Shown here: positions 3,321 to 17,737 of the stretch, piece by piece
Position numbering within the stretch: the stretch's first letter is position 1
Layout: every line of letters starts with the position of its first letter
Assembly: GCA_964444015.1 (NCBI GenBank)
Contig: CAYUFH010000003.1
Coordinates: 9,180 to 41,073 of the forward strand
Length of the DNA stretch: 31,894 nt
Source: an uncultured Gammaproteobacteria bacterium
GTDB lineage: Bacteria; Cyanobacteriota; Vampirovibrionia; LMEP-6097
Reading direction: 5' to 3'
Translations under genes and position numbers: made by a program
Notes under the pieces: model-generated
What the model was told of the DNA's origin: nothing
Seen by the model: only the letters and a program-made list of their open reading frames with translations
The model's database searches: none

Positions 3321-3414
3321 TGTCATCGCGAGCGGTAAAGCAGCGTGGCGATTCATTTAATGGATTGCTTCGCTGCGCTCGCAATGACAGAAGCTACGCT
3401 CCTTACAATGACAG
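3321..3414. repeat. Palindromic REP-like element, family A (full hairpin plus a degenerate extra arm)
   Basis: GTCATCGCGAG (3322-3332) ... TGGATTGCTTCGCTGCGCTCGCAATGAC (3361-3388), then CTTACAATGAC (3402-3412). Lies between divergent sdhB and smpB. Confidence 0.85.
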
Positions 3415-5394: not shown

Positions 5395-5431
5395 GTCATT
5401 AAATGGATTGCTTCGCTACGCTCGCAATGAC
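5395..5431. repeat. Family A REP-like half element overlapping the bioF 3' end
   Basis: TGGATTGCTTCGCTACGCTCGCAATGAC (5404-5431), the exact reverse complement of the copy at 17710-17737. Contains the bioF stop codon. Confidence 0.85.
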
Positions 5432-8260: not shown

Positions 8261-8302
8261 AATTAACAGCAAAACTTAGATTCTGCACTCATGGTTGATA
8301 GC

Positions 8303-8332
8303 GCAAAAACGTGACGCCGGTCACGTTTTTGC
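8303..8332. terminator. Bidirectional intrinsic terminator between convergent genes
   Basis: AAAAA-CGTGAC-GCCG-GTCACG-TTTTT within a perfect 13-bp inverted repeat; one arm overlaps the last nadA codons and stop. Confidence 0.75.
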
Positions 8333-9310
8333 TATGCTAGGCCCAGTCCAAATCTTCTTGCGATTACTGATTTCCATCATCCTCTCTATAGTCGCTCTAG
8401 CAGGAGCCGCGATACGCTCAGGGATATTAATTTCAGTAAACTCTTGATCAATAGCGTCATAAAGATTTTCAAGACTGTGATATTTCATATTCGGACAGAG
8501 AGGTAGAGGAAATACAGTAGTAATGATTTTCTCTGGCATATCAGCTTGCATGCGCGCGACGAGACCTTGCTCAGAAAGTATCACGAAGTTCTTACTAGGA
8601 TTCTCCTCAACGAATTTATAAATCTGCGAAGTGCTACCAACGAAATCCGCCTTACGCCAAACCTCTGGATCACACTCAGGATGGGCAATAATCACCGCTT
8701 CAGGATATTCTTCACGCTGCTTGTCAACTTCGGCTGCTGTAATCTGCCAGTGGGTAGGACAGAAACCATCATAGATATGTAGTTTCTTGTCGGGGACTTG
8801 TTCTTGTACCCACTCACCGAGTCCCTTATCAGGAACGAAAATCACTTCACGAGCATCAAGTGAGCGCACTATATCTACAGCGTTAGTACTGGTACAACAG
8901 ATGTCCGATTCAGATTTAACCGCTGCAGAGCTATTGATATAACAGACTACCGGCGCACCTTCATGACTAGCCTTAAATAAACGCAAATCATCGACATTGA
9001 TCATATCTGCCATTGGACAGCCTGATTGTATATCTGGTAATAGGACTTTCTTGGATGGGCTGAGTAGCTTAGCAGTCTCAGCCATAAAATGCACACCACA
9101 AAATGCAATAATATCTGCGTCAGTTTCTGCTGCACTCTTAGAGAGCATCAAAGAATCACCGACGAAATCTGCAACGCGCTGTACTTCTAAGCGCTGATAA
9201 ATATGCGTAAGAATAACGGCGTTCTTAGTCTTAGCCAGCTCACGCACCCTATTAAATAACTCTTGCTTTTCTGCAGTCTTATCGACTACAGACCTTGCCA
9301 TTAAAGTCAT
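8321..9310 (-). CDS. nadA: Quinolinate synthase NadA
   Basis: DFVGDS, FCGVHFMAETAK, GCPMA, YINSSA, CPTH, HPEC and CPNMK motifs. The start could be 9310 or the nearby ATG at 9301. Confidence 0.95.
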   Translation of the reverse strand: MTLMARSVVDKTAEKQELFNRVRELAKTKNAVILTHIYQRLEVQRVADFVGDSLMLSKSAAETDADIIAFCGVHFMAETAKLLSPSKKVLLPDIQSGCPMADMINVDDLRLFKASHEGAPVVCYINSSAAVKSESDICCTSTNAVDIVRSLDAREVIFVPDKGLGEWVQEQVPDKKLHIYDGFCPTHWQITAAEVDKQREEYPEAVIIAHPECDPEVWRKADFVGSTSQIYKFVEENPSKNFVILSEQGLVARMQADMPEKIITTVFPLPLCPNMKYHSLENLYDAIDQEFTEINIPERIAAPARATIERMMEISNRKKIWTGPSIAKT

Positions 9311-10415: not shown

Positions 10416-11330
10416 GTGTTTTGTTTCGTTACGAAAAAACTAACTATATTACTATTGACACTCTTTATAACAGTGAGTGCTAGTTTCTTTTTGCTGCGCA
10501 TACTACCAGGCAGCCCATTCGATCAAGATAGAGCAATTGCTCCTGAAATTAAAGCCAATCTAGAGCGCCAATATGGGCTTGATAAACCACTTAGTCATCA
10601 ATATTTTAAATACATTCAAGGTGCAATCAAGGGAGATCTGGGACCTAGTCTTAAATACACTAGTCGCTCAGTGCAAGACATTATTGGAGCTGCTCTACCG
10701 ATATCATTAACCCTTGGATTCTTCGCTTTAGTGCTTAGCTTAGCTGTTGGACTTAGTGCAGGTATTGCAGCAGCTCTTAAGCCAAGATCAATAATAGGTT
10801 CTACGGTCTTAACTCTTGCAACGCTAGCAATGTCCTTACCCAGTTTCGTGATGGCAGCATTGCTGGTTACTGTTTTCGCTCTTAAATTGCACTGGCTGCC
10901 GGTAGCTTTACTAGAAGGTCCAGAGTATTTTATATTGCCGCTAATTACTTTATCGCTAGCTCCGACGGCTTATATCATTCGTATCACGCGATCAGCTCTA
11001 CTAGAGACTTTAGGGCAAGACTATATACGAACAGCGCTTGCTAAAGGACTAAGTAATAGAGAAGTGCTTATCAAGCATGCTTTGCGTAACAGTTTGATAC
11101 CGATACTAACAGTAGTTGGACCCTTGGCAGCAATATTAATAACCGGAAGTTTTGTGGTTGAATATGTGTTTGCAATCCCAGGTATGGGTAAATATTTTGT
11201 AACGGCATTTATTAACCGTGATTATTTTTTGGTTTCGGGAGTTGTTTTGGTTTTTGCGCTAATACTCTTGATAATAAATATGCTAGTTGAGTTGAGTTTT
11301 CCTCTGTTGAATCCTAAACTTAAGTCTTAA
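10416..11330 (+). CDS. oppB: Oligopeptide/dipeptide ABC permease OppB/DppB-like
   Basis: PGSPF, YGLDKPL, GDLGPS, DYIRTALAKGL (EAA-like), KHALRN and VEYVFAIPGMG motifs. Confidence 0.9.
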   Translation: MFCFVTKKLTILLLTLFITVSASFFLLRILPGSPFDQDRAIAPEIKANLERQYGLDKPLSHQYFKYIQGAIKGDLGPSLKYTSRSVQDIIGAALPISLTLGFFALVLSLAVGLSAGIAAALKPRSIIGSTVLTLATLAMSLPSFVMAALLVTVFALKLHWLPVALLEGPEYFILPLITLSLAPTAYIIRITRSALLETLGQDYIRTALAKGLSNREVLIKHALRNSLIPILTVVGPLAAILITGSFVVEYVFAIPGMGKYFVTAFINRDYFLVSGVVLVFALILLIINMLVELSFPLLNPKLKS

Positions 11331-11340
11331 ATGTCTTGGA

Positions 11341-11462
11341 TGGATTGCTTCGTCGCGATGCTCCTCGCAATGACGGACTCGGCTCGCGACGATGGACTAG
11401 ACTTGGCTCGCAATGACGGACTCGGCTCGCGATGATGGACTAGACTCGGCTCGCAATGACGG
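11341..11462. repeat. Family A arm followed by a tandem amplification with 43-nt period
   Basis: CTCGCAATGAC at 11364, 11407 and 11450, with variant cores CTCGCGAYGAT at 11383 and 11426. Confidence 0.9.
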
Positions 11463-11491
11463 AGAGCTGATTTCATATTAGAATGGTATGT

Positions 11492-11914
11492 ATGGCTGAC
11501 GAAAAAGTTGCACCCAAGGCTCTAGCATGGTTATTCATACTACGCTGGACTATCGCATTAATATTTTTTCTCAACGCATACCCTAAGTTCTCTGACCCAA
11601 GTTTTGGAGCAGCGGCTCATGATTATTTTTCTACATTAAGTGATGATATTTTGATGCGCGGGCATAATCCCTATACGAAAATTTTTCATACTTTGATACT
11701 TCCTAATGCTTATATCTTTGCTTGGTTGGTTAAACATGCTGAGATTTTTATTGCAGGAGCCTTTTTTATCGGTTTCCCTATGCGCATGGCTACATGGCTT
11801 GCTGTATTCTTGCATGCCAATTATTTTATGGTTGCAAGCATGCCTTCACTAATGTACCTAAATATTATTATGGTCGTAGCTGAGTTAGCGTGTTTGGCAA
11901 GTAAGGAAGGATAG
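11492..11914 (+). CDS. DoxX/DoxD-like membrane protein (track start 11483; 11492 preferred)
   Basis: Four hydrophobic segments with LRWTIALIFF...KF and AEIFIAGAFFIGFPMR. TAGAAT (11479-11484) is 7 nt before the ATG at 11492. Confidence 0.7.
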   Translation: MADEKVAPKALAWLFILRWTIALIFFLNAYPKFSDPSFGAAAHDYFSTLSDDILMRGHNPYTKIFHTLILPNAYIFAWLVKHAEIFIAGAFFIGFPMRMATWLAVFLHANYFMVASMPSLMYLNIIMVVAELACLASKEG

Positions 11915-13692
11915 TGATTCCACCGTCATTGCGAGCGAAGCGAAGCAATCCATTGTGGCATTACTTGTCTTTGGCTTGGTTCATTTCCCTTGCAATGACA
12001 ACGTTAACTCTGCTTCCCGCCAAAGCCACTGATTACTTGGTGAGCGATGCTGCTCCAGGGCGTTTCGGCGGGGTGCTGCGACTGACACATAGCGGACAGG
12101 ATCCTAAGACTTTAAATCCATGGATAGCAAATGATGCAACTAGTAGTTTTTATGCTGATATTTTATTTGAGGGTTTATTTACTCGTGACCCAGATACGGA
12201 TGAACCGCTACCGCGCTTAGCTAAATCATATTTAGTGAATGGTAAAACTATCACTGTGGTTTTGCGCCGCAATCTTCAATGGTCAGATGGACAGCCTATA
12301 ACAGTAGATGATGTTCTTTATACTTGGAATACTTTACTTAGAGACGGTGTCGCACAGAGCTCACTAAAAGATATCTTGATGGTTGAAGGTAAATTTCCTC
12401 GTTTAATTCGAGTTAATGACTATACTTTGCGTTTTGAAACTGATGAAGTTTTTGCGCCCTTCCTCAAAAATTTAAGTTTTGCAGTGGCACCGAAACATGA
12501 TATCGAAGCTTTCTTTAAGCGTCGAGGAGCGCGCACACACGCCCAGCAGCAAACAGCCTTCAATCAATATCTAGCTTTAGACACTGCTCCAAACGTGATA
12601 GTGAGTAGTGGTGCCTTCAAGCTATTACGTATCAAAAGCGGTGAGCGTATCGAGTTCAGCCGTAACCCCAATTACTATATAACGAATAAACTAGGCAAAA
12701 AGTTGCCTTATGTCGATCGCATAGTATTTAGCTATGTGCAGGATGATGGCGCTGATACTTTTAAATTCTTAGCTGGAGAATCCTATGAACTAAAAGTTAG
12801 TCCGAATAATGCTGCTCTAATTAAAAGCCTAGAAAAAAAATACAAATTCAAACTCTATGACTTAGGTCCTAGTAGCGGTACAAATTTTATTTGGTTTAAT
12901 ATGAGTCCAGCTTTAGTAGAGCCTCAGCGTTCTTGGTTTAACTCGACAGATTTTCGCAAGGCTATTAGTTATGCTCTTGATAGAGATAGTATGGTTGCTA
13001 ATGTATTTCAAGGTTTAGCAGCCCCATTATTTACCGCAGAATCTCTGCAATCTCCTTTCGTGCATCTTGATATTAAACATAAGCGCGATCTTAAATATGC
13101 GCGCGACTTACTAGCGAAGGCTGGCTTCAAACTTAGATCCCAAAGGAGTTCTAAGCCCATACTCTATGATAATAAGGGACATAAAGTAGAATTCAGCCTC
13201 TATACTAATGCTGGCAATCATGAGCGCGAGATGATGGCAAGTATTATCGCTGCTAACCTAGAAGATATAGGTATAACTGTTTACGTTAAAGCTCTAGAAT
13301 TTAATAATTTGGTTGCGCGTATTAGTGCTGGCAAGAACTACGAAATGGGTTTGATAGGACTCACTGGTTCTAGTGAGCCTAATGGTGGTGCTAATGTCTG
13401 GCGTAGTGATGGCAGATTACATATCTTCGATCAACGTGGCGAAACTAAAAGTCCTCTGCGCTCTTGGGAAAAAGAAATAGATAAATTATTCACGGCAGCA
13501 GTGCGCACTATGGATTTTAGTAGACGCCAGCAATACTATAATCAATTCCAAGAAATCATTTACAATGAGAATCCTCTTATATTTTTGGTTTCACCGCGCA
13601 TACTGATAGCTGGCTCAGACCGGGTTGGTAATCTAAGACCAAGCCGCTATCAAGGGATAATGCCTTATCTCTATGAGGTTTATATTAAATAG
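11914..13692 (+). CDS. ABC transporter substrate-binding protein, family 5 (OppA/DppA-like)
   Basis: DPKTLNP, LFEGL, WSDGQPITVDDVLYT, SSGAF, RNPNYY and YALDR motifs. N-terminal signal peptide ending AKA. Confidence 0.9.
   Translation: MIPPSLRAKRSNPLWHYLSLAWFISLAMTTLTLLPAKATDYLVSDAAPGRFGGVLRLTHSGQDPKTLNPWIANDATSSFYADILFEGLFTRDPDTDEPLPRLAKSYLVNGKTITVVLRRNLQWSDGQPITVDDVLYTWNTLLRDGVAQSSLKDILMVEGKFPRLIRVNDYTLRFETDEVFAPFLKNLSFAVAPKHDIEAFFKRRGARTHAQQQTAFNQYLALDTAPNVIVSSGAFKLLRIKSGERIEFSRNPNYYITNKLGKKLPYVDRIVFSYVQDDGADTFKFLAGESYELKVSPNNAALIKSLEKKYKFKLYDLGPSSGTNFIWFNMSPALVEPQRSWFNSTDFRKAISYALDRDSMVANVFQGLAAPLFTAESLQSPFVHLDIKHKRDLKYARDLLAKAGFKLRSQRSSKPILYDNKGHKVEFSLYTNAGNHEREMMASIIAANLEDIGITVYVKALEFNNLVARISAGKNYEMGLIGLTGSSEPNGGANVWRSDGRLHIFDQRGETKSPLRSWEKEIDKLFTAAVRTMDFSRRQQYYNQFQEIIYNENPLIFLVSPRILIAGSDRVGNLRPSRYQGIMPYLYEVYIK
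11925..11999. repeat. Complete family A element in frame inside the signal-peptide coding region
   Basis: Left arm GTCATTGCGAGCGAAGCGAAGCAATCCA (11925-11952) matches the 17710 copy at 27/28. Degenerate right arm ends TTGCAATGAC (11990-11999). Confidence 0.8.
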
Positions 13693-17710: not shown

Positions 17711-17737
17711 TCATTGCGAGCGTAGCGAAGCAATCCA
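17710..17737. repeat. Family A half element immediately after the rlmD stop
   Basis: GTCATTGCGAGCGTAGCGAAGCAATCCA; lies between convergent rlmD and tsaD. Confidence 0.85.

Follow-up and report, generated by a model that had tools for sequence, protein, structure and literature searches.

Repetitive extragenic palindromic (REP) sequences carrying a CGTC tag (Di Nocera et al. 2013, PMC3733652) are known from alphaproteobacteria, including Novosphingobium, and that description counts the Rickettsia palindromic elements (RPEs) RPE-4 and RPE-6 among them, citing Ogata et al. 2002 and Claverie & Ogata 2003 for RPEs that lie in frame. In-frame palindromic repeats have been known since the RPEs, and N-terminal cases are usually dismissed as misannotation of the start codon. 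Here we consider one such case in a stretch of 31,894 nt (hereafter the window), which occupies positions 9180–41073 of contig CAYUFH010000003.1 (C3) in a metagenome-assembled genome (MAG; assembly GCA_964444015.1, designated G000). A pair of REP-like units at positions 11925–11999 of the window lies in frame at the 5′ end of a gene for a solute-binding protein, and we regard it as rather probable that this pair is translated from the GTG codon at 11914 and provides a Sec signal peptide with its n-region and the greater part of its h-region.

The MAG, that of a freshwater bacterium, comprises 1.49 Mb in 144 contigs, with 40.7% G+C and a completeness of 83%. Named relatives place it in the order Caenarcaniphilales of the Melainabacteria (Vampirovibrionia).

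A repeat pair in frame with the binding-protein gene

The initial annotation had described a complete palindromic element in frame at the N-terminus of an OppA-like protein, and this proved accurate: the copy consists of two arms and a spacer, spans 75 nt (25 codons) and falls within codons 4–29 (Table 1). Its left unit exactly matches the commonest genome variant of a 27-nt core, GTCATTGCGAGCG-N-AGCGAAGCAATCC, which has four matches in the window versus none in 100 shuffles, and 102–113 matches across the genome. The right unit is identical to an exact inverted copy at 22 of 28 positions, about 0.5 chance matches this good being expected genome-wide. A profile of right arms only did not recover it at 11972–11999 in the forward direction, and its recognition was based on the ungapped 22/28 count together with the genome-wide background. 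A profile from the other 30 two-armed copies aligned to the entire 75 nt (39.4 bits, E 6.6e-10), and a rod hairpin was predicted for this segment, at −32.7 kcal/mol (z = −5.1). No target-site duplication was visible between 11914–11924 and 12000–12010.

Charge and hydropathy of the possible leaders were estimated with hand-made measures. Starting at GTG 11914 the leader has 38 residues and a net charge of +3, and its h-region of 26 uncharged residues has a hydropathy of 1.98 at its 10-residue peak. The left unit, translated in its second frame, would give the basic n-region SLRAKRSNP; it had been noticed at the outset that this arm supplies all basic residues of the n-region, and with the GTG start R, K and R indeed all belong to it. 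The first two thirds of the hydrophobic core would then come from the spacer and the right unit, and the rest of it from ancestral sequence, as would the A-K-A site, with small residues at −3 and −1. The mature protein would begin as in relatives with TDYLVSD at 12028, a start conserved in the closest orthologues. The right unit reads (A)WFISLAMT and the copy at 3360–3388 reads (D)CFAALAMT, in agreement with the peptides compared initially. A twin-arginine signal and a lipoprotein signal were considered and rejected, there being neither an RR motif nor a Cys lipobox in residues 1–40.

Leaders beginning at TTG 11953 or later have a net charge of 0. Those from TTG 11953, 11965 and 11971 contain 17–23 uncharged residues and keep the A-K-A site. 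The internal ATG leaves MTTLTLLPAKA, which had been judged too short for a signal; this judgement stands, since its uncharged residues number only 9 and its hydropathy peaks at 0.75. All starts giving a usable hydrophobic core are situated inside or upstream of the element. The comparative evidence indicates that the binding protein could retain a signal peptide only if at least part of the REP pair is translated, and export by means of the 38-residue leader presumably works.

Table 1. Window coordinates of the upstream gene, the proposed translation signals and the parts of the proposed, partly repeat-encoded leader
Feature	Position	Strand	Remarks
Upstream membrane-protein open reading frame (ORF)	11483–11914	+	143 aa; TAG stop at 11912–11914
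Shine-Dalgarno (SD)-like motif TAAGGAAGGA	11902–11911	+	within the final codons (SKEG) of that gene
Solute-binding protein gene, SBP_bac_5 (OppA/DppA-like)	11914–13692	+	592 aa; periplasmic; intact
Proposed GTG start	11914–11916	+	TAGTG stop/start overlap, typical of translational coupling
Left REP-like unit (CGTC tag, core, CCA tail)	11925–11952 (tag C at 11924)	+	encodes S-L-R-A-K-R-S-N-P, net +3
Spacer, 19 nt, apical part of the hairpin	11953–11971	+	L-W-H-Y-L-S, start of the h-region
Right inverted REP-like unit	11972–11999	+	encodes A-W-F-I-S-L-A-M-T, core of the h-region
Internal ATG	11995–11997	+	from the GCAATGAC terminus of the right unit; 11-residue leader only
End of the h-region and c-region, TLTLLPAKA	12000–12027	+	predicted signal-peptidase I site after A-K-A

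It had also been claimed that a single substitution in the left arm, turning TAG into AAG, opened the frame. The difference itself is real, since T at this place in the copies at 5405–5430 and 17711–17736 would give TAG, but the frame-opening mutation did not hold up. No such mutation is needed, because this base is the hypervariable position of the family and A is its commonest state (in otherwise exact copies A occurs 26 times, T 17, C 15 and G 3).

The six differences of the right arm from a perfect inverted copy comprise replacements of D by A, of C by W and of A by I (2 nt) and two synonymous changes. In the frame of the gene the perfect copy would be read as L-D-C-F-A-S-L-A-M-T, the actual unit as L-A-W-F-I-S-L-A-M-T; an Asp is lost from the h-region and peak hydropathy increases from 1.62 to 1.98. 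Two of the six differences retain pairing as G-U. The left arm has no differences, and for arms equally free to change a distribution of 0 and 6 has a two-sided p of about 0.03. As a sign of adaptation to the hydrophobic core these changes are suggestive only, and the right arm could instead be older than the left. The final 11 nt of the right arm (CTTGCAATGAC, the LAMT codons) are present also in the orthologue of a same-genus relative (G001), which is otherwise without the element and reads ALLLAMT there. The LAMT end may represent ancestral gene sequence or a remnant kept in this relative.

The same junction in related genomes

The binding protein matches PF00496 over residues 98–489 (E 1.6e-66, 225 bits against a curated cut-off of 32.4). 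Of 40 related genomes, 39 have an orthologue of it, and 780 homologues have E ≤ 1e-100. Besides G001, the closest material for comparison includes two JGI (Joint Genome Institute) freshwater contigs of a sister lineage (L016 and L019), the orthologues P0003 and P0004 (the latter on contig L017) and G006.

The G001 protein is 78% identical to that of G000, and its leader, MLVKKASALLLAMT..QAAS, is short and plain. Between TAGTG and CTTGCAATGAC there are 8 unrelated nt in G001 versus 72 nt, which include most of the element, in G000, a net difference of 64 nt. Because an indel of this size equals 1 modulo 3, the GTG retained in G001 is not in the reading frame. A TTG located 22 nt inside the upstream gene (L002:1465–1560) is the only plausible start of the G001 leader, which reflects either a real shift of the start after a 64-nt deletion or a 1-nt error in the MAG. 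The plain leader of P0003 and P0004 is 25 aa long; its ATG belongs to a TAATG overlap and coincides in position with the GTG of G000. In G006 the repeat is absent and the leader is plain and 18 aa long; it contains FLAMP, which resembles the LAMT end, only GCAATG being in common. More distant members of the family also lack the repeat and carry lipoprotein (Cys) signals. The N-termini of orthologues without the repeat differ, then, from that of G000, as an origin of the leader in repeat DNA requires. Beyond the leader, T[DE]YLVSDA is kept in G001, P0003 and L016, and P0004 has TDYLSSDAP. The residues preceding the mature start are VKA, SAA, AAS or VHA, followed by T[DE]YL or SPSE.

Since all orthologues are already equipped with a Sec or lipoprotein signal, the repeat would have remodelled an existing signal, with the n-region replaced and the h-region lengthened, and would not have created secretion. 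Of the initial proposal that repeat DNA was exapted as a secretion signal, it is a probable coding role of the repeat within the leader that finds support, and not the invention of export.

The sister lineage has repeats of its own at the same junction. In L016 and L019 the stop codon TAA is followed by 6 nt, a truncated short unit and a long-form unit, that is, by units of the family other than those in G000, read in the same frame as SLRAK or SLRVK. In L019 there is no in-frame ATG, GTG or TTG between the repeat and the h-region. Since no such start is available downstream before the hydrophobic core, the L019 repeat must be translated if a canonical start is used. The h-regions of L016 and L019 are distinguished by five synonymous and two conservative changes, a pattern that fits coding sequence, as would be expected.

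A tree of the closest orthologues, computed without the first 60 residues, has the topology (G006,(G000,(G001, L016, (P0003, P0004)))). On this tree two gains of repeats are about as parsimonious as one gain with a loss or losses. A stretch of G001 that resembles a right arm (7.7 bits, E 9.6 per 1.5 Mb) is suggestive at a pre-specified site and not significant genome-wide; together with the shared 11-mer it gives a hint that an ancestral element may have been partly deleted in G001.

Choice of the start codon and alternative explanations

Several features single out GTG 11914. It aligns exactly with the ATG of P0004 (L017), and an SD-like motif identical to that of G000 precedes this ATG as well. 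The sequence AAGG begins at −11 and −7 from the GTG, and SD-type motifs of the genome peak at −15 to −11. The remaining in-frame starts, TTG 11929, 11953, 11965 and 11971, are all within the element and its hairpin and have no SD-like motif; two of them, 11953 and 11965, are inside the spacer and 11971 begins at its final base. We infer that GTG 11914 is the start used. Translation would begin there in a manner coupled to termination of the upstream gene and aided by the TAAGGAAGGA motif.

A number of observations weigh against this assignment. The leader is long, 38 aa compared with 18–25 in the nearest orthologues, and its peak hydropathy is below their 2.6–3.6. An SD motif is found in only about 15–20% of G000 genes, and the one upstream of GTG 11914 is also under constraint because it encodes the end of the upstream protein. 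The hairpin of the element begins 12 nt into the frame and could hinder initiation at the GTG. A basic n-region is not obligatory in the lineage: the leader of the G001 M23 peptidase, MQLILILLLVFSAPAHA, contains neither K nor R. Among the public sequencing runs searched, no RNA run contains the locus.

With these observations in mind, it is possible, if clearly less probable than the start at GTG 11914, that translation begins at TTG 11953, 11965 or 11971 and that the left unit is left untranslated as an intercistronic REP RNA, perhaps as a hairpin with a stabilising or attenuating effect. Of the element, only the spacer and the right unit would then contribute to an uncharged hydrophobic leader of 19–25 residues, so that the hydrophobic core would still be supplied by the repeat. 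Such a start agrees with the occurrence in the genus of leaders without K or R, with the uncharged cores and A-K-A sites that all three leaders retain and with the lack of SD motifs in most G000 genes. It agrees also with the statement, in PMC3733652, that REPs placed by annotation in the N-terminal part of genes are often extragenic and misannotated. The M23 peptidase of G000 looks like such a misannotation, its repeats being placed most simply upstream of the true ATG. Against a TTG start it may be said that TTG is a weak start, that all three candidates are buried in the predicted hairpin with no SD-like motif before any of them, and that it is the GTG that combines an SD motif, a stop/start overlap and the position of a relative's ATG. 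Furthermore, the equivalent repeat of L019 cannot be skipped by any canonical start. In the GTG-started form, residues 2–13 read IPPSLRAKRSNP.

The element could also have damaged the gene, which would then start at ATG 11995 or nowhere, its product not being exported, and would represent a young pseudogene or a merely tolerated ORF. The short leader from this ATG, the strong hairpin over the 5′ end and the small size of the genome, which may be shedding functions, speak for such an outcome. We nevertheless hold it improbable: the frame of 592 aa is intact with a full SBP_bac_5 match, the changes in the right arm go the way one would expect for a hydrophobic core, and the repeats of the sister lineage keep their frame open. 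Besides, the junction has been recovered in other material. When contigs of public runs were aligned to 11450–12450, a 216-nt contig of a nematode metagenome, which belongs to a different study, was found to span 11892–12089 with two differences, extending more than 31 nt beyond the element on both sides. Drinking-water contigs from two samples of a third study cover 11626–11948 and 11941–12099 with no differences.

Contigs of MAGs do often break or misjoin at repeats, and the source-sample Logan contigs break inside the left arm, but a chimera or collapse that merely simulated an in-frame element is hardly credible, because contigs of two other studies carry the same junction, one of them spanning the whole element, and the order of the upstream gene and the binding-protein gene is kept in G001, L016, L017 and L019. 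Translation of the pair from GTG 11914 thus remains the reading that we prefer.

Composition, placement and spread of the repeat family

Units of the family are 27–34 nt long and pairs 65–93 nt. There are two forms of unit, a short one of 27 nt, found in most left arms, and a long one of about 33 nt, found in most right arms and as the second unit of L016 and L019. The stem, ATTGC...GCAAT, begins with AT. The tag is CGTC or TGTC in 77 of 89 copies (the base before GTC being C in 52 and T in 25), and the CCA tail is present in 88 of 89. Genome-wide there are about 30 inverted pairs versus some 71 single copies, and the spacers of the pairs are unrelated in sequence and length. Folded as DNA, the half-unit forms 5 bp and an inner mini-hairpin of 2 bp and 3 nt (GC-GNA-GC) with an energy of −2.7 kcal/mol (z 0.13), no better than shuffles; a stem of 8–9 bp with a loop of 4–5 nt fits only if G-A mismatches are counted as stem. 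The variable base discussed above we take to be the middle base of the GC-GNA-GC loop.

Placement of the units was assessed genome-wide in G000 relative to same-strand ORFs of at least 150 aa. Heads of 26 of 158 units were found at −1 to +9 nt after a stop codon, with a mode at 3 nt, while about 0.6 were expected, which implies homing to the first bases after gene ends or selective retention there. The distance from the upstream stop is 10 nt for the copy considered here and about 7 nt for that of L016. Since the units settle after stops and the binding-protein gene begins on a stop, the element came to be within its 5′ end: the tagged end of a unit would settle just after a stop codon, and in this arrangement the usual site would be coding sequence. 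A unit inserted there would persist only if the frame stays open and the leader stays functional.

Copy number is patchy among the relatives, with 99 copies in G000, 22 in G001, 65 in G008, 75 in G024 and none in G006 and most other genera. The genome, 83% complete, gave no match to a REP-associated tyrosine (RAYT/Y1) transposase (PF01797). Plasmids or replicons of Novosphingobium, Methylobacterium, Methylosinus, Legionella lytica, Aulosira and Calothrix carry near-identical units of about 30 nt; a 1.76-Mb replicon of Novosphingobium has them in at least 40 places. The units on plasmids and the patchy distribution in Caenarcaniphilales suggest horizontal spread or a shared host mechanism.

Units are found in frame in other genes of the genome as well. 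LSLRAQRSNP is in frame at residue 497 of UvrC (L031, C35:4696–6663, − strand), within the match to an RNase H-like domain. SHCEAHSAEAIH is in frame at residue 209 of MutL (L033, C35:12449–14494, + strand), between the ATPase and transducer domains, and a unit is in frame at residue 249 of a Mur ligase (L034, C117:294–1901, − strand). These three proteins have intact Pfam domains on both sides of the units, and several reading frames are used. In an SBP_bac_1 protein (L026, C49:3–638, − strand) the REP unit RHCERSEAIY follows in frame just after the signal and before the mature domain, and a unit of a second family, SRNVTDVTILRS, is likewise in frame between the two.

Comparison with orthologues was made for the binding protein and for two further candidates. 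An exported protein without a Pfam family (356-aa ORF, G000:C44:865–1935, + strand) has two REP units in frame in its leader. Here the ancestral ATG, kept in G001, is followed by the two units, the second reading RHCERSKAIH, by a leader core ending in A-Q-A and by LDLDDY; past the repeats there is only one start, and it would leave 10 residues. The orthologue in G001 (L040) has a plain leader of 16 residues. The M23 peptidase was rejected as a further N-terminal case, since its G001 orthologue puts the true start most likely at the ATG after the repeats.

A second dispersed palindrome, terminator-like, was observed at 8296–8330 of the window as AAAAACGTGAC, 4 to 5 nt and GTCACGTTTTTGC. It has many copies in the genome (for example on contigs C28, C49, C50, C69 and C120), often beside REP units, and gives NVTDVTFLR when read through.

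As for the neighbourhood of the binding-protein gene, the 143-aa ORF upstream of it has a weak DoxX-like match (PF07681, E 4.6e-4, below the curated cut-off) and is itself preceded by an ABC permease gene (10416–11330). A single long-form REP unit at 11341–11374 is directly 3′ of the permease stop (11328–11330), and after it comes a 43-nt repeat in about 2.5 tandem copies (11364–11449), which reuse the CTCGCAATGAC terminus. An antisense ORF of 49 aa at 11327–11476 is probably spurious. A scan of 11200–12200 against Rfam at E ≤ 1 gave no match.

Discussion

Based on the three candidate instances, namely the binding protein, the exported protein of contig C44 and the L016/L019 lineage, one can go further and regard REP units as portable leader cassettes that have been recurrently recruited to rebuild n-regions, h-regions and start codons of Melainabacteria signals. 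This generalisation is tentative, and we consider it unlikely. By settling within some 10 nt after stops, the units would repeatedly enter the 5′ ends of tightly packed or coupled genes, and their frames would encode either basic (SLRAKRSNP, HCERSEAIH) or hydrophobic and ATG-bearing (MDCFA-LAMT) stretches. In the literature searched we came across no account in which a REP, RPE or miniature inverted-repeat transposable element (MITE) serves as a signal peptide, and no relevant open paper on the "small dispersed repeats" of cyanobacteria.

If confirmed, the case would make signal peptides a permissive landing zone in which selfish repeats turn coding, would provide a concrete criterion for annotators choosing starts beside REPs and would extend the phenomenon of CGTC-type REPs to non-photosynthetic relatives of cyanobacteria. 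Understanding of secretion itself is left unchanged.

As to the class of the repeats, the family shares with the CGTC-tagged REPs, as characterised in PMC3733652, the tag, the stem starting with AT, the CCA tail, the frequent inverted dimers, the position near 3′ ends of ORFs and, as far as the 83%-complete genome shows, the absence of a dedicated RAYT. This likeness was judged on described features, not on the CGTC-1 to -4 consensus sequences. There are differences as well. The hosts listed in PMC3733652 include neither Cyanobacteria nor Melainabacteria, to which the present host belongs; its CGTC REPs are typically paired head to head, whereas the pairs here are tail to tail; and its stems have 8–9 bp, while the Watson-Crick stem here is limited to 5 bp and the mini-hairpin. 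Classification as a MITE was rejected: the arms are inverted, but the spacers lack a conserved core and no flanking duplication is visible.

The repeat family behaves like RPEs. Both RPEs and in-frame intragenic palindromic repeats or MITEs (PMC10969869) are, like the units described here, dispersed palindromes in frame within apparently functional protein genes, and the element at 11925–11999 is best classed as a REP/RPE-like in-frame insertion. RPEs are larger, about 100–150 nt, and their host is not, as here, a non-photosynthetic relative of cyanobacteria. Whereas RPEs are accommodated on the surface of a folded protein, the copy studied here would reside in a predicted signal peptide that is cleaved off. 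This leader has the basic n-region, the uncharged core, the small residues at −3 and −1 and the conserved mature N-terminus next to them that characterise ordinary Sec leaders processed by signal peptidase I, and it is set apart from them in that a mobile or repetitive element encodes about two thirds of it.

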